NCBI GenBank assembly: GCA_964255285.1
Contig: CAXUUL010000078.1
Location: 1-35,915 of the forward strand
Direction: 5' to 3'
DNA: 35,915 nucleotides
From: Ionaspis alba
Taxonomy: Eukaryota
Under the pieces are notes generated by a model that was given only the letters and a program-made list of their open reading frames with translations, had not been told where the DNA came from and ran no database searches. The first letter of the stretch is position 1, and every line of letters starts with the position of its first letter. Positions 9,675-25,591 of this stretch are shown one piece after another. The position numbers were made by a program, and so were the translations under genes.

Positions 9675-10228
9675 ATGTCGGCGAAGACGTGGATCAAAAT
9701 GGCAATCGCGTAAGTCAACATGCCAGATCACAACGTTGCATAGCACTCCTGCCATCTCTTGATATCTATGAGTTAGTTTTTCGATCTAACGCTTGCCATA
9801 GGGGCGTTGTCCTGTGCATTGGAGGTCCGGCCTTGGTCATCTATGTTACTCCTACCGAAGAAGAACTATTCAAGGTAGGAAGAGAGTCCTGGGCTAGATT
9901 TGGATGATTTTAATTGTGGCATCGCCAGCGTTACAATCCGGACTTGCAAAAGCGATCGTTGGAGAATCGCGAAGGGCGGCAGAAGGAATTTGATGAGTTT
10001 GTCGCAAAATTGAAGGAGTATTCGAAGTCAGATAAGCCAAGTAAGCTCGAGTCCATCCTACAACCTGCAGGTTATCCTGGTACTGAATTGTTCGGTTCAG
10101 TATGGGTAGTAGCAAAGGAAGACGAGGAGCGGAAACGGGCTGAAGCAGCGCAAAAGCAAGCACGCTTGGCTCTTGAAATGCAGAAGCGAAGGGAGGAAAT
10201 AAAACAGGAATCCCTCCGCGCTCAGTAA
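9675..10228 (+). CDS. CBP4: Cytochrome bc1 assembly factor Cbp4
   Basis: Exons 9675-9709, 9802-9874, 9929-10040, 10101-10228 give [50 protein letters not shown]...YSKSDKPIW. Confidence 0.9.
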
Positions 10229-16527: not shown

Positions 16528-17930
16528 ATGGCTGCTACAAGAGAGCGTGTGGGGCGACCTACTCAGTTCCATGGCGTGCCATTGGAAGAGCGTGCTTTTG
16601 ATTCTCAGGGAAATCGATTACCTTGGGCTTTGGAATGGGCGGAGTAAGAATTCTTGCGCTCAACATCCTGAATTGATGCATTATCGCTGACCAGGCACTC
16701 AGCGATCATCCTAACGCTCGACTCCAGAAGCGTCAGCCAGAAGAAAAAGGGTCGTTTGGTAAATCTACAAGGCGAAAAGGCTCATCTCGAGGCACGAGGA
16801 CGCAAACACCTGCGAAGAAGGAGAATCTTACACTCGATGGCTTTGAGGCCGCGTTGGCATACGACGCTCAAAATGAACCACAAAAACAGCTTCCAAGTAC
16901 AGGTCTTAATGTTCCTGATACAACACATCATGTCGGTCCTAGCTTGACCAAGGAACCAATGCAGGTGATGCTATATGGATACTCTCCAGAGACGCAGTGG
17001 GCTGCTATACAATTTTACGAATCCGTATCTGGTGGAATTATCTGTGAGGATTACGAAAGAGTGCCACCCGTTGAGCGCCGGAGATTTCAGAATGGTCTCG
17101 GATATTCCGGTCACATGCGTCCTCGGGCATTGACAAAAGCAGAAAAGGCTTCGGCTATGCAGTACAGAGGCGGCTCATGCTGGATCAAAGTCACCTTTGA
17201 TTCTATAGAGGCTGGTGAACGTGCCATCTACAATTCACCCCATCCGATTCAAGGCCACCTGGTACATGCCCAGGCTTACCGTGGTCAAGCACCCGATATC
17301 GACGAACCCATGCCATTGACCGAAGAGGTCCAAACGCAAGTGCTTCTTGGTGGTGGAAAATCGGACCGCAGACCGCCACAGACCCTGGGAGCTTCGTTCT
17401 CCCTTCCCTCATTGCAAGGACGGGATGTAACCCAAAGAGGCACTACAACATTGCCGAGATCTTTCACGGTCACTGGCAATACTGAGGAGCAACCTATGCA
17501 GCAGCTTTCTGAGGACGCTTCTCTCTCCTCATCTACCGCGTCTTCGGCAACAGCTCTCGGTCCCGAGCAGGCCATGTTACACCACAGAACCTCCACCTCA
17601 CTCTTCACCGAGATCCGATCTCCCGATGCCCGGGAGACTGCCATTGTACAACCATCCAGGCGGCCCAAAACGTTCACACATTTTCCAGACACTCCTCGGA
17701 CGTTACTCAAGCCTGCTGCTGAAGCCTTTCTGCCACAGTCGTCCTGGACAGAAAGACTTTCCCGACAGCTCTCACATAGCGGATGGATACCGGGTGATAT
17801 CATCGGCAACGCTGTGCCCCGTCTCGAAAACGGGGCCTTTGATTGGACAAACGCTAGCTTCTATTGGAAGGTCTGTTATTGGCTCGACACAACATTCGGA
17901 ATGGACTTGTGCGGTATAAAGGAATCTTAG
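16528..17930 (+). CDS. Nup53/35/40-type RRM-like domain protein
   Basis: Exon 16528-16643, intron 16644-16702, then in frame with the 358-aa ORF; VMLYGY...AIQFYE...GGIICEDY and GGSCWIKVTFDS resemble the Nup35-type RRM. Confidence 0.7.
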
Positions 17931-18216: not shown

Positions 18217-19015
18217 CTACAACGCCATAGCTACTCCCGAGACACCACCTAACAGCAATCCCAAGAAACCTGCTGTCTTCTTCACAGCCGCAGCAGAACT
18301 GCTTGATGCTGCAGCAGCACTAGTCGCACTCGATGAAGTACTCCCTGTCGAGGTAGTGGTTGCATCTGTGCCATTGGCATTCCTGAATTGGCCGGTGTAT
18401 GGAGCGGTCTTGATACCAGTGCCGTTAGTACATGTTGAGGGGGACGGAGTACCCTTGGTGAAGGTTATGTCGGCACACTAGGTTAAGAATCAATCAATGG
18501 GCTGTCTGACACAGTGGACTGAGGAACCATGACGGAGGACCACATACATTGTATAAGCCGCCACTTGGATCTCCACTCGTGACAACCTGAATCGTAGCAT
18601 TTTGGCCATCCTTGATATTGAGCTCCGAAGGTACGACCTATGCCTCGTAAATTTCACACAGTCTCGTGCTGCCTTGTGGTTCCTCGGATGTACTTACGAC
18701 GTCGCCCATGCAAAAGTCACCAAATCCTTCTTCCTGGAAGGTAGGCATCAGGGTGATGTTGAAGTTTCCGCCCACGTCGTTGCCAAGCCCCAGTAATACC
18801 TGGACGGCCACTCGGTCATGTTGCATGTTCAGCTGGATCGGTCCACCTTTGAGGGGCCATAAGGTCCTGTTGGGACTCGGGTTGTCCTGACCACCACAGG
18901 GAAATTTTGCAAGATCATCCTCGTTGAAGCCTCGAGCAGCTGGGTAATTGAGGAGGAAGTGAGCGGTGGCGAAGGAGAGTAGGCAGGGAAAGAGAAATGC
19001 AGTCGAGTGATGCAT
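18217..19015 (-). CDS. Bim1/X325-like (LPMO-like) GPI-anchored copper-binding protein, 222 aa
   Basis: Exons 19015-18698, 18637-18548, 18477-18217; 18-aa signal peptide ending ATA followed by His1 (HFLLNYP..RG...PCGG), His48, NATIQVVTSGDPSGGLYNCADITF, Ser/Thr/Ala stalk and hydrophobic GPI signal (GFLGLLLGGVSGVAMAL*). Confidence 0.85.
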
Positions 19016-19230
19016 TGTGTAGGATTACACGTGGGTATGTGCAGCGTAAATAAAGGGAGCGACAGTCTCGATTCGTGTTTGCACCTTGGGGTATGCGGAG
19101 AAGCGGAAGCGGAAGTATGAGTGGGAATGGAATTGGGACGATGTTAAAGAAGCTGTGAACCCAATCCAAAGCAGTTCGTGGTGGGAAATGAGTTGATCAA
19201 AGTCTGGATGGTGTGACAAGGGGAATATTG

Positions 19231-19245
19231 GAGCAAACTTGCTCA
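19231..19245. promoter_or_regulatory. Candidate copper-response element pair (Mac1-type CuRE) in inverted orientation
   Basis: GAGCAA-AC-TTGCTC(A) about 215 bp upstream of the Bim1-like ATG; each arm resembles TTTGCTCA. Confidence 0.45.
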
Positions 19246-19726
19246 AACCACGACAAAGAGGCTATCCGAAACCGAGTCGGGGAGCCAAGTTTTTCTCTTA
19301 TAGCTGGTGCACATCATGTGACACGGTGGATGGTAGGTATGAGAGATCTCTAGTAGACTGCAGTGTATCGCAGTGCTCGGGAGCTTCATGCTTCATTTCT
19401 GATGGGGCCGGGCAGAGTACAGGAGAGGTTTCTAGGATAATTGACTAAGCCAACCTTAACCACAGCCAGAGGATGCTTCTACAGTTACGGCTGCAATAGC
19501 TGGATGCGGTCCTATACACGCCAAAATAGTAGACCGAAGATCTCTGCGTCAATAATAATGATAGGTTTCAGCAGGCTTTGACTCTCCTTTTCCCTATGCA
19601 TATTCAATTCTTGAGCCTGTCAGCATTGGGGAGTATTGTGAGATATTTGCATTTGTCCATCATTGCGCCTCGCTATGCATGCCAGTCTACAGAATCGTTC
19701 CGGAGATGCTGTTATAGTGACATAGT

Positions 19727-20321
19727 CTAGTGCTCTTCTCGCGCGACCAGACGACCGACTCCCAATTCACCAATGAAAATGCCAGCAAGGACAGATAGAA
19801 AATAGCCAAGATTCATTGTCATGACCGCCAGCATCCTGCATCATACTGATTAGCAACAATTGTCCAGGAGGAGTTTCGGGAAGAACGCACAGCAGATAAC
19901 TAATCCCAGCCGTCAAGGTCGTGTAGGCGGCTCGTGGAAGATCGATGGAAATCCGCCATGGGGTGAACGCTCTCGTGTGCCTTTTCACAATTCGAACATG
20001 TTCTTCCGACCCTCGCTCTGTTACCAGCACCCCGGTTTTCGCATCGGTGCTTTCGTTCACCAGCTGTTCTGCCCGTGGCTGTCCGCGGACCGTGACGAAC
20101 CTTCGGTTCAGCTCCTTGTCTGACCACTTGCGCTCAAGGAGGACTTTGCCAGCCGACAACACTCGAGAGACAACGGCAAGAAGGACGAGAAAGATGCAAG
20201 TCCCCGCATAAGCACCCGTACTCGAAGGCGTCCAGGCTTTGGAAAACAAGGGTGACGAGGTCGACTGGAAAAATACCATGTCCATGGTCGTGGAAGACGA
20301 GGAGTGAGAATGCGAAGACAT
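19727..20321 (-). CDS. Ctr-family copper transporter
   Basis: Exons 20321-19891, 19835-19727; N-terminal MSSHSHS..TMDMVFF, WTP...YAGTCIFL, TM2 YLLMLAVMTMN (MxxxM), TM3 GIFIG (GxxxG), C-terminal His. Confidence 0.95.
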
Positions 20322-21472
20322 GGTGATATTGTCGCCGGGCTTTGAAGAGGACGGCAAGCCGAGGGTAGTGCTTTTGAGACCTGACTTGATAGATAGATGT
20401 CTTCACAAGGTAGCAAGCGATTCGAAGGCTTCAGTATGCACGCGAGGTACTGCAGGAAGCAGAAAACAAGGCGATTGCATCGAGTATGTGCGAACAGTGG
20501 ACGTATGGGATGATGCTCAAAGAGTGTAGAGAGTAAAAGCAGGGTGGGTCTAGTAGTTGATGTGACCTACGACATGACACGAATTGTGGGACAGCACTTA
20601 GGGAGAAGTCAATTGTGCCGTCACTCGCTCCAGATCAACAATGCCACACAATTTGACGGTTTGAGTGTGTAAGTCTAGATGTAATCCCACAACATCTCTC
20701 GGTTCCTACCTTTCCCGAAGGATGGAGGACAAAGGAAAGAGAGATGTGGCCGCTGTGGCTACAGAAGCCATGGTAGAACCAGATCGTCGTACACTACAAC
20801 AGAGGAAACTGCCTCAATTGCGCGCAAGCGTAGGGCTGCATCCCTGCCAATCCGATGCTGCTTTATTCAGTTTGCTATACTCCGTCACGAGTGAAACTAT
20901 TGCTCGCTTAACGCTTCGCCTGAAATTAAGTCGCAGTTGGAAAAATGGAATGACTTATGCACTAAAGCGGCATCAGTCTGCACTCTTTGTCTGTCTGACT
21001 GTCCCACAATTAGTGACTTTATAATCTTCATATCGAAACGAGGACATTGTAGGCCGCATCAACGGGGGCTATCTATCACACTTCGTGTTCGACAGCCAAT
21101 ACTCGGTGCAATACTCCAACGGGGCCTAGGCCCCTAACAGAAGTGTCATGCACTTCCAGCCGCAAAATTGCTTGTGCGAATCTTGCAGTCTCGATCATTA
21201 CTCTTCGCCTGTCAACGTCTAGAATACTGCTCTTTACCATTCCTAAGTCCAAATTTCCACTTTTCCTGTTCAAAATAGCTCCTGCTTCCTACTTCCTTCT
21301 TTCTTGAGTTCATCGTCAACCTCAGCTTCAAAAGTCATGATGTTGAACATCTCTCTTTTTTGTATGTTCCCTTGATCTGTCGTCCTCAGATCCCATTGAT
21401 CGACTTAGCCACTTGAGCAGTCTTCCAGCAACGTGGAGCTTTGTCTAGGAGAAAGGAGATCTGACTCACATA

Positions 21473-23623
21473 ATGGATATGATGGATATGACTGGAATGG
21501 GCGATGGACCAAACGGTGCACTTACCTTGGCCCAAGCGAAAACCACGTACTGGGCTTTTGTGGGAGCTGCTCTCGGCGTGGCGGTCGTGGTCAACATCCT
21601 GAATCAGATTGTTAATCGCCAAAGACTTCGCGCTGTCAGCCATGGTACGCCCCAGCCCGCTAAGCCCATCGGCTTCCTACCTACGGCCCTGGCAACGACG
21701 ACTGCCATTGCGCGAGAAGTAGGTTATGCACGAGTCACTTTCAAAATCATCCGACGGTATCGATTACAGTCGCCCGTTCTCGGACACACCGTCATCGTCC
21801 TTTTGGATCTTACTCTTGTATTGGCCCTTTCGTTCTACGGACTCGACCCCCAAGATGAATGGCAATGGGAGCAGATCGCCTACAGGATCGGCCACGTTGC
21901 CACCGCTCAGTTGCCCTTGATATTTGTTCTTGCGGGCAAAAACAATATCATTGGAGGGATCGTTGGATGTGGCTATGAGAGACTGAATTGGCTTCATCGA
22001 TGGACTGCTCGCATACTCCTTCTCACTGTGTCGCTTCATATGGCGTTTTGGTTTGAGGACTGGGCTAGATACGATTACATCAAAGTCAAATTGACGACTG
22101 ATAGCAGGGCCAAGACTGGGTTTGCAGCATGGTGTATTCTCCTCTGGATGGTCCTCAGCTCCCTAGCGCCCTTGCGAAGATGGAATTACGAAATCTTTGT
22201 CGTACAGCATGTTCTATCAATTGGAGGAATCACCGCGGCCATTTATCTCCATCTACCTCAATACCTTAGAGTATGGCTCTGGATCTCGGTAGCCTTTGCC
22301 GTTTTCGACCGGGTCTTGCGATCAGCCATTGTCATCTACTTCAATCTCTCCCTCTTTCATCCCAAAACGAAATCAGGGGCTGGTCTCTGGACATGCAAAG
22401 CAACCCTGGAACCTGTGGAATGCGACGCTACTCGAATAACGATCCACAACCCCCCCATGCATTGGAAAGCTGGTCAGCACGTTTTCTTGTCCTGTCATTC
22501 CGTTGTGCCGCTGCAATCTCATCCTTTCACGATATCTTCACTTCCCAAAGATGGCAAAATGGTATTTTTGGTCAAATCTCGGAAAGGAGGAACGAAAAAA
22601 TTCTTCAGCTATTCGCAGACACGCAGCGTTCTTCCGGTAACAAGGACAGACGCCACAACAAATCGTAGCCAACAGATCGCCATTATTGAAGGTCCATACG
22701 GTCAAACCAGGTCCATGCGCCAATTCGACAGTGTGATTTTCTTTGCTGGAAGTACCGGAATCACCTTCACACTCCCTCTGATGAGGGATATAGTTGCTTC
22801 ATGGCTGCAAAACTCCAGCGGCCAAGCACAACCGGGCGGCGCACCTCGACCTTCACCTGCACCTGTCGTGACTAGGTGTATTCGTTTCGTATGGGTGATC
22901 AAGTCACGAAAGCAATTATCATGGTACAGTACGCAGCTAACCGAGGCCGTGGATGACGTGACGCGTCTGAGGAGCGAAGGCCACGAAGTCGAGCTTGAAA
23001 TCAGCATTTACACCACGTGCGATGAGGAATTAGAGATGGTCGATACCAACTCCGGAGCCGGCGCTGTGGCAACAGAAGTGAAGAGAGTTTCATCCGAAAG
23101 GGACGTCTCAGAGAAATTGGCCGCAGCACAAGTAACTGTGACGGATTTGAAGCTGCGACGAGGTCCTGGAGCATCCACCGTCCAAACATGTGGACCTAAC
23201 GGCTCTTGTTGCTGTACGAATATTGTCGAGGACGAGGATGAACAATCCGACTCGGTTGTGAAGTGCGAGTGTCGCTGTGAAAAGTTGGAGAAGGAAATAA
23301 AGGAGAAGGACGTTGATCAGGACTCTCGGCATCAGTCGCTAACGGCAACTCAACGCTCTCCGGACAAGTTCCAAATTATGACCTCCTCTACTAGTGACGA
23401 ATCGGCCGTGCTCAGAATATTTTCTGGACGGCCGCATCCGAGGAGTATAATCCGTAAGGTACTAGAGCAGGCTCTGGGTGAGAGTGGCGTTGTGGTCTGT
23501 GGTCCGGAAGGTCTCGTCGACGATGTAAGGGCAAGTGTGGTCGCTCTAAGTGACGAAAGGGCGATTCATAAGGGTACAGGAGCTCAGGGAGTCTATTTGC
23601 ATACGGAGGCATTTGGCTATTGA
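21473..23623 (+). CDS. Ferric/cupric reductase (FRE family, Fre7-like), intronless
   Basis: 716 aa; heme His pairs (WLHRW..SLHM; VQHV..YLHL), FAD motif HPFTI, NADPH motifs EGPYG, AGSTG, VCGP, terminal EAFGY. Confidence 0.95.
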   Translation: MDMMDMTGMGDGPNGALTLAQAKTTYWAFVGAALGVAVVVNILNQIVNRQRLRAVSHGTPQPAKPIGFLPTALATTTAIAREVGYARVTFKIIRRYRLQSPVLGHTVIVLLDLTLVLALSFYGLDPQDEWQWEQIAYRIGHVATAQLPLIFVLAGKNNIIGGIVGCGYERLNWLHRWTARILLLTVSLHMAFWFEDWARYDYIKVKLTTDSRAKTGFAAWCILLWMVLSSLAPLRRWNYEIFVVQHVLSIGGITAAIYLHLPQYLRVWLWISVAFAVFDRVLRSAIVIYFNLSLFHPKTKSGAGLWTCKATLEPVECDATRITIHNPPMHWKAGQHVFLSCHSVVPLQSHPFTISSLPKDGKMVFLVKSRKGGTKKFFSYSQTRSVLPVTRTDATTNRSQQIAIIEGPYGQTRSMRQFDSVIFFAGSTGITFTLPLMRDIVASWLQNSSGQAQPGGAPRPSPAPVVTRCIRFVWVIKSRKQLSWYSTQLTEAVDDVTRLRSEGHEVELEISIYTTCDEELEMVDTNSGAGAVATEVKRVSSERDVSEKLAAAQVTVTDLKLRRGPGASTVQTCGPNGSCCCTNIVEDEDEQSDSVVKCECRCEKLEKEIKEKDVDQDSRHQSLTATQRSPDKFQIMTSSTSDESAVLRIFSGRPHPRSIIRKVLEQALGESGVVVCGPEGLVDDVRASVVALSDERAIHKGTGAQGVYLHTEAFGY

Positions 23624-23948: not shown

Positions 23949-24900
23949 TTAACAGCCCTTATCAACCAATTCCTTCTCTGTCCATTCCCACAAATTTTCA
24001 GCCAGGGCAGTATCATAGACATACGAACTCCCTTGGCTAATATTAGCGATGGGCTGGTAATACGCTCGATTTGGAGATCTCTTCTCCCTATTGTGGCCGC
24101 CCAAAGCCGGTCTTTTGCCCCTTCCTAGACGCTGCCCATGGCGAGAGACCCACCATTGCCACAACCCATCTCATGACCGCGCTTGTCACTTTGTTCGGCC
24201 CATGGAGGTCTGTTTGAATGATGCCGAGATCGACAGAGACAGAAGTAATCTCTGGATGTCGTGCGGCAAGCTCCCTGGTGTACGGGATATTGGCCAAATT
24301 CGACTGGCCATAACACGCCCAGGCTCCCTGAGCGTCTAATTTTGCTTTCTCAGTTAAGACGCCGTCTTTCAGGGCCAATCAATGTCCATCTGAGGTAAGT
24401 TCTATGATGCGCGCATGAACGCCGGCAGGAGTAGCTTCGTCAGCAGGGTGTGGCCTATGTGGTTGGTGCCGGATTGTACTTCGTAGCCTGCTTCGGTCGT
24501 GCCAGGTGGCGTAGCCATGATTTCTGCGTTGCTCACCAAGATATCAGGACGTGACCACTGAGCCGAGAATTGTCTTGCCGCTTCTGCAACGGAGTGAGCG
24601 ACGTCAAGTCGAGATGGAGGAACGTAACATTGGCTGACGGGACTGCAGCCTTGATGTCCGCAATGACCTTCTCCGCTGTGGATTCCGCGCGTGCTGCAAG
24701 ATATATATGCGCCAGGTTATGCTTCGACAATTGGAGGATCGCCTCCGCGCCGAGCCCCGTGTTTTCCTATGGTGGAAATGGGCTTCACTCTATGGTACAT
24801 GATTGATGCGTTTTACGACACTGCCTCCGGTCGCTATGATCACTTTGTTAGAGAGATCGGGGACGTCGACCTTGGGAGAGAATTTCTTGTCCCAGAACAT
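23949..24900 (-). pseudogene. Degraded short-chain dehydrogenase/reductase (retinol dehydrogenase/WWOX-like SDR)
   Basis: Fragments DVPDLSNKVIIATG / NTGLG / LHLDLTSL / DILVSNAEIMA / GTNHIGH / YGQSNLAN / LAENLWEWTEKEL lie in different frames; frameshift near 24595, deletion/frameshift near 24410, in-frame TGA near 24380, YxxxK Lys changed to Asn. Confidence 0.88.
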
Positions 24901-25591
24901 GGCTGAGAATAAGTTGCAAGGAGATTGAGACTTCAGTGCAAATCGAGACAAATTTAAAGGGACTGTCAAGTCATATTATGTGCGTATGATCGAGAGGTGA
25001 GGAGAATCTAACGACTGTCCTGTGGCCGTAGCTAGATATCTTACCTTGCTCAAGGTCGCTTGAGAACCGTGTAGGGTTCAGAATCAAGTTCGATGCTCAG
25101 GATCGGAACACGGTACTCAGTCAGTCCGGGCCAGTGAGCATTGAATTGGATCCATCCATGAGGATCCATCTGGACAGGTAAATCTGCCGGCTGTTCCTTT
25201 CGCCAACACAAAGAATCAAAATCCGGAAGCAAGCATACTCTACGTATTTTGTGCCAGTGGACTCCAGGTGTGTAAGTGCGCTAAGTATAAGTCTCAGCCT
25301 CATCCAGGCCTGGGCGAGGAGGATGGAACCGGCTGCAAATATCAGATCCTGCTCCCGTCAGGGGTTTTGCCCTGTGACTGTACGGTGGAATTGAACCTCC
25401 CTTATTTTAGCTGGTATCGCCATTGGCCAGGGCAAATACTAATGCACGTACCGGTACGTAACAGTTGCCTGGAGTTACCCTCGACACTCAGTTCAGTCCT
25501 CTTCGAAGTGATTGCTTCCACAAAAAAAAAAAAGAACACGCGCAATTCGAGTCCATCCACCACACATGGTCCCGTGCAGGGCCCGTGCATA

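Follow-up and report, generated by a model that had tools for sequence, protein, structure and literature searches.

In a 35,915-bp stretch of the genome of Ionaspis alba (GenBank assembly GCA_964255285.1, contig CAXUUL010000078.1, positions 1 to 35,915 of the forward strand; hereafter the window), three neighbouring genes between positions 18217 and 23623 encode a BIM1/X325-like protein (BIM), a Ctr copper transporter and a FRE-type metalloreductase. We conclude that this trio is probably a copper-limitation uptake cluster of three co-inherited genes. The identities of the genes, their conserved order and orientation, their joint inheritance and a shared promoter motif are the observations on which this reading is built. 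The trio itself is not new. The initial annotation of the window regarded the three-gene linkage as possibly undescribed; the adjacency had been printed in 2008 for Aspergillus fumigatus (PMC2481287), and a functional model joining CTR, BLP and a reductase followed in 2025 (PMC12113139). What is new here is the very probable Bim1/X325 identity of the glycosylphosphatidylinositol (GPI)-type neighbour, the conservation and co-inheritance of the trio across classes, the promoter motif common to its genes, and the copper-type motifs of its reductase.

The three genes stand where the initial annotation had placed them, and Pfam confirms each as BIM1-like, Ctr or FRE. Their outer stop codons, 18217 and 23623, are the exact ends of the feature that had been noted. 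The BIM1/X325-like gene (18217-19015, minus strand, 222 amino acids) consists of three exons (19015-18698, 18637-18548 and 18477-18217) separated by introns of 60 nt (GTAAGT..TAG) and 70 nt (GTATGT..TAG). The Ctr gene (19727-20321, minus strand, 179 amino acids) has two exons (20321-19891 and 19835-19727) with a 55-nt intron (GTGCGT..CAG) between them, and the FRE gene (21473-23623, plus strand, 716 amino acids) is a single open reading frame (ORF) without an intron. Ctr lies upstream of the BIM1-like gene on the same strand, 711 bp separating the Ctr stop from the BIM1-like ATG. As the annotation had it, Ctr and FRE are divergent: their start codons face away from each other, 1151 bp apart, and the 1151-bp segment between them (20322-21472) is a shared promoter. 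The gene models were spliced manually from the sequence and then translated, and the spliced BIM1-like and Ctr models are in residue-by-residue register with full-length homologues. Thus, the splice-joined stretch ...GDVVVP...GGLYNCADITF of the BIM1-like protein reads as in spliced homologues such as P0122, and exon 2 of Ctr yields MLAVMTMN..GIFIG, as in the full-length homologues of alignments A1 and A3. The introns of this fungal DNA are short and spliceosomal, and the closest named relatives of all three proteins are from lichen-forming fungi, which points to a lecanoromycete as the probable source.

Conservation and co-inheritance of the trio

A Ctr alignment was scanned against metagenome contigs, which gave 80 loci with at most 10 kb on each side, and BIM1-like and FRE genes were located in them by tblastn with the window proteins and by profile hidden Markov models of homologues over six-frame translations. 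The loci were clustered at ≥95% nucleotide identity over the Ctr region into 48 clusters, and scoring a gene as absent required 3 kb or more of visible flank. The full trio, in the same order and orientation as in the window, was found in 16 of the 24 clusters with both flanks visible, and the arrangement is beyond chance because it recurs in this way. For each partner, 29 clusters are informative; a BIM1-like gene follows downstream of Ctr in 21, and a divergent FRE gene is located upstream in 21. Besides the clusters with both partners, five have BIM with the FRE side not visible, four have FRE with the BIM side not visible, one lacks FRE with the BIM side not visible, and 14 show neither side. 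FRE is present in every one of the 16 clusters that have BIM and a visible FRE side. All BIM matches are on the Ctr strand and downstream of it, with gaps of 412-1984 bp, and all FRE matches are on the opposite strand and upstream, with gaps of 360-1541 bp. When an ORF was taken from each BIM-bearing cluster, all 21 matched PF20238 at E ≤ 0.001; 20 of these ORFs score above the Pfam cut-off, and the remaining one, under it, is a 37-residue fragment at a contig end.

Relative to the window proteins, the nearest metagenome loci are 42-64% identical in BIM, 42-59% in FRE and 43-58% over the main segment of Ctr, the short second exon of which reaches about 80%. In a tree of Ctr proteins, the trio-bearing loci fall into at least five well-supported clades, which include named proteins of Lecanoromycetes, two Dothideomycetes groups, Chaetothyriales and Eurotiales; further trio loci are placed near a leotiomycete and near Xylona. 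A firmer taxon anchor comes from loci L040 and L045, the BIM proteins of which are 92% identical to a protein of Aureobasidium pullulans. Judged from these placements, with taxon labels that are provisional, the trio appears to be conserved across several ascomycete classes.

The pairwise distances of the three proteins are correlated among 17 trios, with Mantel r values of 0.50 (Ctr-BIM), 0.68 (Ctr-FRE) and 0.77 (BIM-FRE); at a median divergence of 47-50%, none of 2000 permutations reached the observed value for any pair. The genes have therefore long been inherited together. Their linkage outlasts local synteny: 4 of 12 long trio loci have none of the window's flanking genes, and elsewhere the flanking genes change place or side.

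A probable histidine-brace protein next to Ctr

The GPI-type neighbour of Ctr is, from its sequence, very probably a histidine-brace Bim1/X325 protein. PF20238 (BIM1-like_dom) matches its exon 1 at 76.1 bits, against a Pfam cut-off of 27. The N-terminus is hydrophobic and ends in ..SFATA, which is followed by HF. The histidine at this point, His19 (codon 18961-18959), is matched with residue 1 of mature LaX325 (PDB 6ibh) and occupies a column that is invariant in alignments A2 and A4; it would thus be His1 of the mature chain, at a cleavage site that is itself putative. The second brace histidine (in NMQHD; His48 of the mature chain, codon 18820-18818) aligns to His49 of 6ibh. The Asp of CADITF is encoded at 18471-18469, and we take it to be the Asp of the copper site. 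In X325 proteins, an Asp completes that site at the fourth position (PMC10952591). A profile of 12 homologues matches 6ibh with an E-value of 4.9e-22, with LYnCaDitF aligned to LYQCADVTF. The His1-brace proposed in the initial annotation is thus consistent with the alignment of His19, the second histidine and the CADITF Asp with LaX325, and the same correspondence of copper-site residues makes the protein a putative binder of Cu(II).

The fold was approached through P0122, a homologue with 71% identity to exon 1. The best PDB matches of its AlphaFold model (mean predicted local distance difference test score 66.4) are the LaX325 chains (6ibh, E 1.6e-11, TM-score 0.77 on the target), followed by lytic polysaccharide monooxygenases (LPMOs). 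By way of this close homologue, the window protein is predicted to adopt the LPMO-like, immunoglobulin-type X325 fold. LaX325 of Laetisaria arvalis (PDB 6ibh, 6ibi and 6ibj) has the same fold and, by alignment, the same copper-site residues, although it is a basidiomycete protein with about 34% identity to the modelled P0122. At its C-terminus, the BIM1-like protein has a Ser/Thr-rich linker and then a hydrophobic tail, residues 204-222 being its sole hydrophobic 19-residue window; this tail looks like a putative GPI signal.

Copper-type motifs in the transporter and the reductase

The Ctr protein matches PF04145 (Ctr) at 82.7 bits against a cut-off of 25.3. Its N-terminus is short, rich in His, Ser and Met, and ends in MDM. 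The last two of its helices carry the signatures MLAVM (MxxxM, second helix) and GIFIG (GxxxG, third helix), the columns of which are invariant in alignment A3. As for its subfamily, the printed probe for Afu6g02810, the ctrA2 gene of A. fumigatus, encodes RRYIAIA when translated, and the primer encodes WFATHL; the two peptides, short as they are, match P0038 and P0112, the Penicillium/Aspergillus members of the subfamily to which the window Ctr belongs. Together with a published listing of homologues, they suggest that the window Ctr may be of the A. fumigatus CtrA2 subfamily.

The C-terminus of the window Ctr (19727-19760) ends in EH without a Cys motif, and the subfamily as a whole ends in ..(E/D)H. 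Other Ctr proteins are discussed with C-terminal Cys or His-Cys-His motifs. Here, a cytosolic Cys cluster sits in the linked reductase instead of in the Ctr C-terminus.

The reductase matches PF01794 (Ferric_reduct), PF08022 (FAD_binding_8) and PF08030 (NAD_binding_6). It has the haem-binding pairs H175-x13-H189 and H246-x13-H260, as well as the landmarks HPFT at residue 350, GPYG at 407 and CGP at 676. Two further features are of a copper-binding kind. First, the N-terminus is Met-rich (MDMMDMTGMGDG, 21473-21508, plus strand, residues 1-12) and is followed by an extra first hydrophobic helix at residues 29-47. In homologues the N-terminus reads MDMSGMSMG..GDGVP, and 40 of the 120 best FRE homologues have at least four Met in their first 30 residues, many of the remaining models being truncated at the N-terminus. 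Counting seven hydrophobic helices, this N-terminus should be on the outer face, like the Mets motifs of Ctr1. Second, an insertion within the NAD-binding domain carries the Cys cluster CGPNGSCCC...CECRC (23189-23278, plus strand, residues 573-602). Of the 120 best homologues, 119 keep the CCC, and CGPxGxCCCxxxIEDE..CxCxC is common to loci about 50% diverged, within an otherwise variable cytosolic insertion. The cluster looks like a Cu(I)-thiolate site, possibly one that senses or receives imported copper. The linked reductases would thus form a subfamily with putative copper-type motifs on either side of the membrane, one rich in Met and the other in Cys.

A promoter element common to the three genes

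About 225 bp upstream of the BIM1-like ATG, at 19236-19245 on the plus strand, the window has AACTTGCTCA, a candidate copper-response element of the Mac1 type, which is the sole match to AACNTGCTCA in the 35.9 kb. The Ctr-FRE promoter has two bare TGCTCA cores, at 20514-20519 (plus strand) and 21414-21419 (minus strand).

Motifs were counted in 22 Ctr-FRE promoters and 22 Ctr-BIM spacers, each set consisting of 21 locus representatives and the window, and compared with 500 shuffles. TGCTCA occurs at 2.23 per kb in the Ctr-FRE promoters (49 observed, 17.7 expected, standard deviation 4.0) and at 1.76 per kb in the Ctr-BIM spacers (40 observed, 16.7 expected, standard deviation 4.2), as opposed to 0.68 per kb in the rest of the loci; none of the 500 shuffles reached either count. 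In an unsupervised k-mer count of the BIM spacers, ACTTGCTC, AACTTGCT and CTTGCTCA came out at or near the top, each in 13-14 of 22 spacers against 0.9-2.1 expected, and the 8-mer CTTGCTCA was found 19 times upstream of BIM1-like genes in related loci against 1.1 expected (0 of 500 shuffles). Related loci are only partly independent, so that the true number of independent events is lower than these counts imply. AAAC(T/G)TGCTCA, the extended form, is found in both the Ctr-FRE promoters and the BIM spacers, and also upstream of Ctr in loci without partner genes. The TGCTCA-type motif of the loci fits both the motif DHNTGCTCANNN from chromatin immunoprecipitation sequencing of Fusarium oxysporum Mac1 (PMC11563359) and the A. 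fumigatus MacA motif TGTGCTCA (PMC6514546). We therefore regard it as a Mac1/MacA-type element common to both promoters and a candidate for their regulation.

Related systems in other fungi

The closest precedent is that of A. fumigatus, in which Afu6g02800 (a putative GPI-anchored protein), Afu6g02810 (ctrA2) and Afu6g02820 (a metalloreductase) are adjacent and co-induced, with log2 values of 11, 8 and 3, the GPI gene responding most strongly (Sugui et al. 2008, PMC2481287). These are the same three kinds of gene, and their locus tags run, as in the window, from the GPI protein through Ctr to the reductase. The window, however, is from another and probably lichen-forming lineage, and the 2008 study did not see a histidine-brace copper protein in the GPI protein and interpreted the cluster from the standpoint of oxidative stress and iron. 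Our identification of the neighbour of Ctr implies that Afu6g02800, the most strongly induced gene of that trio, is very probably a Bim1-like copper scavenger. AFUA_6G02800 is also mentioned in PMC5810475 and PMC3601126. The A. fumigatus homologues of P. destructans (Pseudogymnoascus destructans) VC83_03096, CTR1a and BLP2 are given as XP_747795.1, XP_747796.1 and XP_747797.1 (PMC13208438), of which XP_747796.1 is an A. fumigatus copper transporter (PMC2932688). The three accession numbers are consecutive, and we infer that they are the Afu6g02800-02820 genes, in the orientations of the window. The importer of this trio, CtrA2 (Afu6g02810), has been described as being of high affinity and as copper-repressed (PMC8425704), and its overexpression rescues a macA mutant (PMC6514546, PMC8425704).

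In P. destructans, the same three kinds of protein have been proposed to act jointly in high-affinity copper import, under the name "CTR/BLP/MRed" (PMC12113139). Under bathocuproine disulfonate (BCS), BLP2 (VC83_03095) mRNA is 3.8-fold up and that of the reductase VC83_03096 is significantly up (PMC12113139), the log2 fold changes of the proteins being 3.57 and 3.59, respectively (PMC13208438). The locus tags of BLP2 and the reductase are consecutive, an adjacency not remarked on in the available text of PMC12113139 and PMC13208438, whereas the annotated Ctr genes are elsewhere (VC83_00191 and VC83_04814). Consecutive BIM1-like and FRE tags without an annotated Ctr between them are also seen in Letrouitia subvulpina (Q9167_001921/001922), as in P. 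destructans (VC83_03095/03096); in both, Ctr was either lost or missed by annotation.

The genes for Bim1/Cbi1 and Ctr1 are not known to be linked in Cryptococcus. Bim1/Cbi1 of C. neoformans is a GPI-anchored histidine-brace copper protein that aids uptake through Ctr (PMC9258870, PMC12113139). It thus combines the same kind of capture protein with a Ctr transporter. The available text of these two papers does not present the Cryptococcus genes as neighbours.

Divergent ctr/fre pairs in filamentous ascomycetes, which the initial annotation had cited as known, are indeed established. The AnctrA-AnfreC pair of Aspergillus nidulans is conserved in 110 of 127 species (PMC7705104), and ctr3-fre9 and ctr1b-fre12 of F. 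oxysporum are direct Mac1 targets confirmed by chromatin immunoprecipitation (PMC11563359). Like the window, these systems have Ctr and FRE divergent from a shared promoter with Mac1 sites; unlike the window, they are described as pairs and not as a trio. In Fusarium, the third gene carries the annotation of a SAM-domain protein, and AN3210, the next gene number after AnctrA, is a transporter of the major facilitator superfamily (PMC5585587). Since, according to the available text of PMC7705104, no A. nidulans protein is significantly similar to AfCtrA2, AnctrA-AnfreC belongs to a different Ctr subfamily.

A text search of the literature found no statement of a BIM1-like/Ctr/FRE linkage, which the founding Bim1 and X325 papers may still mention; the 2008 report on A. 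fumigatus was traced through accession numbers and locus tags.

Proposed mechanism

The following scheme would account for the three genes. When copper is scarce, a Mac1-type factor would switch on all three together. The GPI-anchored histidine-brace X325/BIM1-like protein would capture Cu(II) at the cell surface, while FRE, with cytosolic NADPH as electron donor and FAD and two haems as relays, would reduce Cu(II) to Cu(I) at the outer face, freeing the copper from the brace. Cu(I), being held less well by the brace, would shift to Met residues of the reductase and of Ctr, and a CtrA2-type Ctr trimer would import it. Induction by copper limitation and high-affinity import by CtrA2 are carried over from papers on relatives and would apply to the window by analogy. 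The reductase may act on brace-bound copper, with the three proteins side by side or in a physical complex, and its outward Met motif and cytosolic Cys cluster may handle Cu(I).

The initial annotation had proposed a physically linked capture-reduce-import module and had pointed to linkage in other genomes, induction by copper limitation and copper binding as the places where that idea could fail. The analysis supports the module on the first two counts. The linkage recurs in the metagenome clusters at the frequencies given above for BIM, FRE and the trio, and, in relatives, BLP2 and VC83_03096 of P. destructans are up under BCS (PMC12113139, PMC13208438) and the A. fumigatus trio is co-induced (PMC2481287).

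Several observations weigh against a copper-limitation uptake cluster. Ctr stands alone, with BIM and FRE both absent, in seven clusters, which shows that the linkage is not obligatory; in one more, FRE is present in pieces and BIM has been lost. The Ctr tree behind the class assignments is weak (136 columns, many open forks), and the taxon labels of the loci are provisional. Both TGCTCA sites in the Ctr-FRE promoter of the window are without the extended AAAC prefix. Taken singly, the window is not enriched in TGCTCA (21 against 27.3 expected) or in TTGCKCR (15 against 21.6 expected), and the loci show no enrichment of the yeast-type TTTGC[TG]C[AG] (0.18 per kb against 0.17). In P. destructans, the locus tags of the copper-induced CTR1a, CTR1b and BLP3 are distant from one another and from the BLP2-reductase pair. 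Finally, the assays of the A. fumigatus triple deletion in the available text of PMC2481287 were on iron-limited media, peroxide, menadione and neutrophils, none being for copper limitation.

With regard to the first of these points, the Ctr-alone loci are scattered among the trio-bearing clades, and two of them (L029 and L053, with Ctr near 10001) have an SDR-like (short-chain dehydrogenase/reductase-like) gene about 2 kb upstream, at the position that FRE has in the window. The scatter and the SDR-like gene at this position therefore suggest repeated loss and not a separate paralogue. Loci L035 and L036, which have FRE in pieces and no BIM, may represent a decaying cluster.

A more far-reaching version of the copper-uptake reading can be proposed; we hold it only tentatively and think it rather doubtful as a whole. 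According to this version, the trio would be an ancient, vertically inherited unit of the Pezizomycotina that works as one surface machine, in which a dedicated cupric reductase strips Cu(II) from the brace, its Met motif passes Cu(I) to the CtrA2-type channel, and its Cys cluster (CGPxGxCCC..CxCxC) senses or receives Cu(I) for feedback. If it were true, ascomycete X325 proteins would have a general biochemical role, and a copper-specific subfamily of FRE would be defined.

X325/BIM1-like proteins are widespread, and their role outside Cryptococcus has barely been tested. The linkage to a putative CtrA2-type importer and a reductase, the shared element and the co-inheritance provide a directly testable hypothesis, namely that the reductase frees brace copper for uptake through the channel. 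They also allow the unexplained A. fumigatus result of 2008 to be re-read, given that Afu6g02800 is very probably Bim1-like.

Alternative explanations

We consider it unlikely that the BIM1-like protein is a passenger in an old synteny block, with a role in the cell wall and no working tie to Ctr and FRE. Such a role would be in line with the tie of Cbi1/Bim1 to the cell wall in Cryptococcus (PMC9258870) and with the abundance of PdBLP2 under all growth conditions (PMC13208438), and NAC, the SDR-like gene, malate synthase and the ORF at 16677-17930 do recur near the trio in several loci. A passenger would not be expected, however, to stay where the flanks differ, as the trio does, or to come with FRE wherever the FRE side of a BIM-bearing cluster is visible. 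The BIM promoter, moreover, has the same extended motif as the Ctr/FRE promoter, and it is the GPI gene that is the most induced of the A. fumigatus trio (PMC2481287).

Less probable still is a cluster that serves mainly in defence against oxidative stress and not in nutritional uptake. The A. fumigatus work gave grounds for this view: normal neutrophils induce the trio more strongly than do neutrophils of chronic granulomatous disease, and mutants in which Afu6g02800-02820 were deleted jointly fail to grow in menadione (PMC2481287). The same mutants, however, are normal on peroxide and show no greater sensitivity to neutrophils (PMC2481287). Sensitivity to menadione would be expected from a poor copper supply to Cu/Zn superoxide dismutase, and ctrA2 is copper-repressed (PMC8425704), both of which fit the copper-uptake reading better.

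A role of Ctr and FRE at an internal store (a vacuole or endosome), comparable to that of yeast Ctr2 and Fre6, and not at the cell surface is very improbable. The shortness of Ctr (179 amino acids) and the lack of a signal peptide in FRE are in keeping with it, as are the original labelling of Afu6g02810 as a copper transporter of low affinity and its alignment with Ctr2 proteins (PMC2481287, PMC2932688), and the accumulation of A. nidulans CtrA, though of another subfamily, in vesicles (PMC7705104). Against these stand the high affinity ascribed to CtrA2 as an importer and the rescue of the macA mutant by its overexpression (PMC6514546, PMC8425704), the Met-rich N-termini of homologues, and the predicted secretion and GPI anchoring of the linked partner, which are features of a surface protein.

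That the module serves reductive iron uptake, to which the membership of ferric reductases in the FRE family might point, can practically be dismissed. On iron-limited media, growth of the A. fumigatus triple deletion is normal (PMC2481287); FRE is partnered by a Ctr rather than by an iron permease, the promoters carry a motif of Mac1 type, and the Met and Cys motifs of FRE appear to be of the copper-binding kind.

Neighbouring genes and annotation

In the window, the trio is surrounded by unremarkable genes, namely those for a TRP-type channel, a Sel1-repeat protein, malate synthase, a LigB-type dioxygenase, a photolyase, NAC and Ipi1. In distant lineages, NAC, malate synthase and the TRP channel are scattered within 10 kb of Ctr, on varying sides (loci L002, L028, L032, L042, L045, L053, L061, L075 and L078), and these scattered genes are the remnant of an old synteny block. 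The SDR label of the gene at 24088-24975 is weak (Pfam E 0.11). A fourth gene was sought in the longer Ctr-BIM spacers, and no convincing ORF was found there. The 417-residue ORF at 16677-17930 (plus strand), for which Pfam gives no match even at E 1, recurs just past the BIM1-like gene in loci L002, L009 and L032, and elsewhere in L053.

The trio also carries a warning for annotation, in that a short, intron-containing Ctr gene between larger genes may escape gene callers. Two deposited FRE models are fused, P0258 (Teloschistes) with an SDR domain and P0215 (Psora) with a NAC domain, and are probably merged neighbouring genes. These fusions mirror the gene order of the window, in which FRE is followed by the SDR-like gene and, further on, by NAC.

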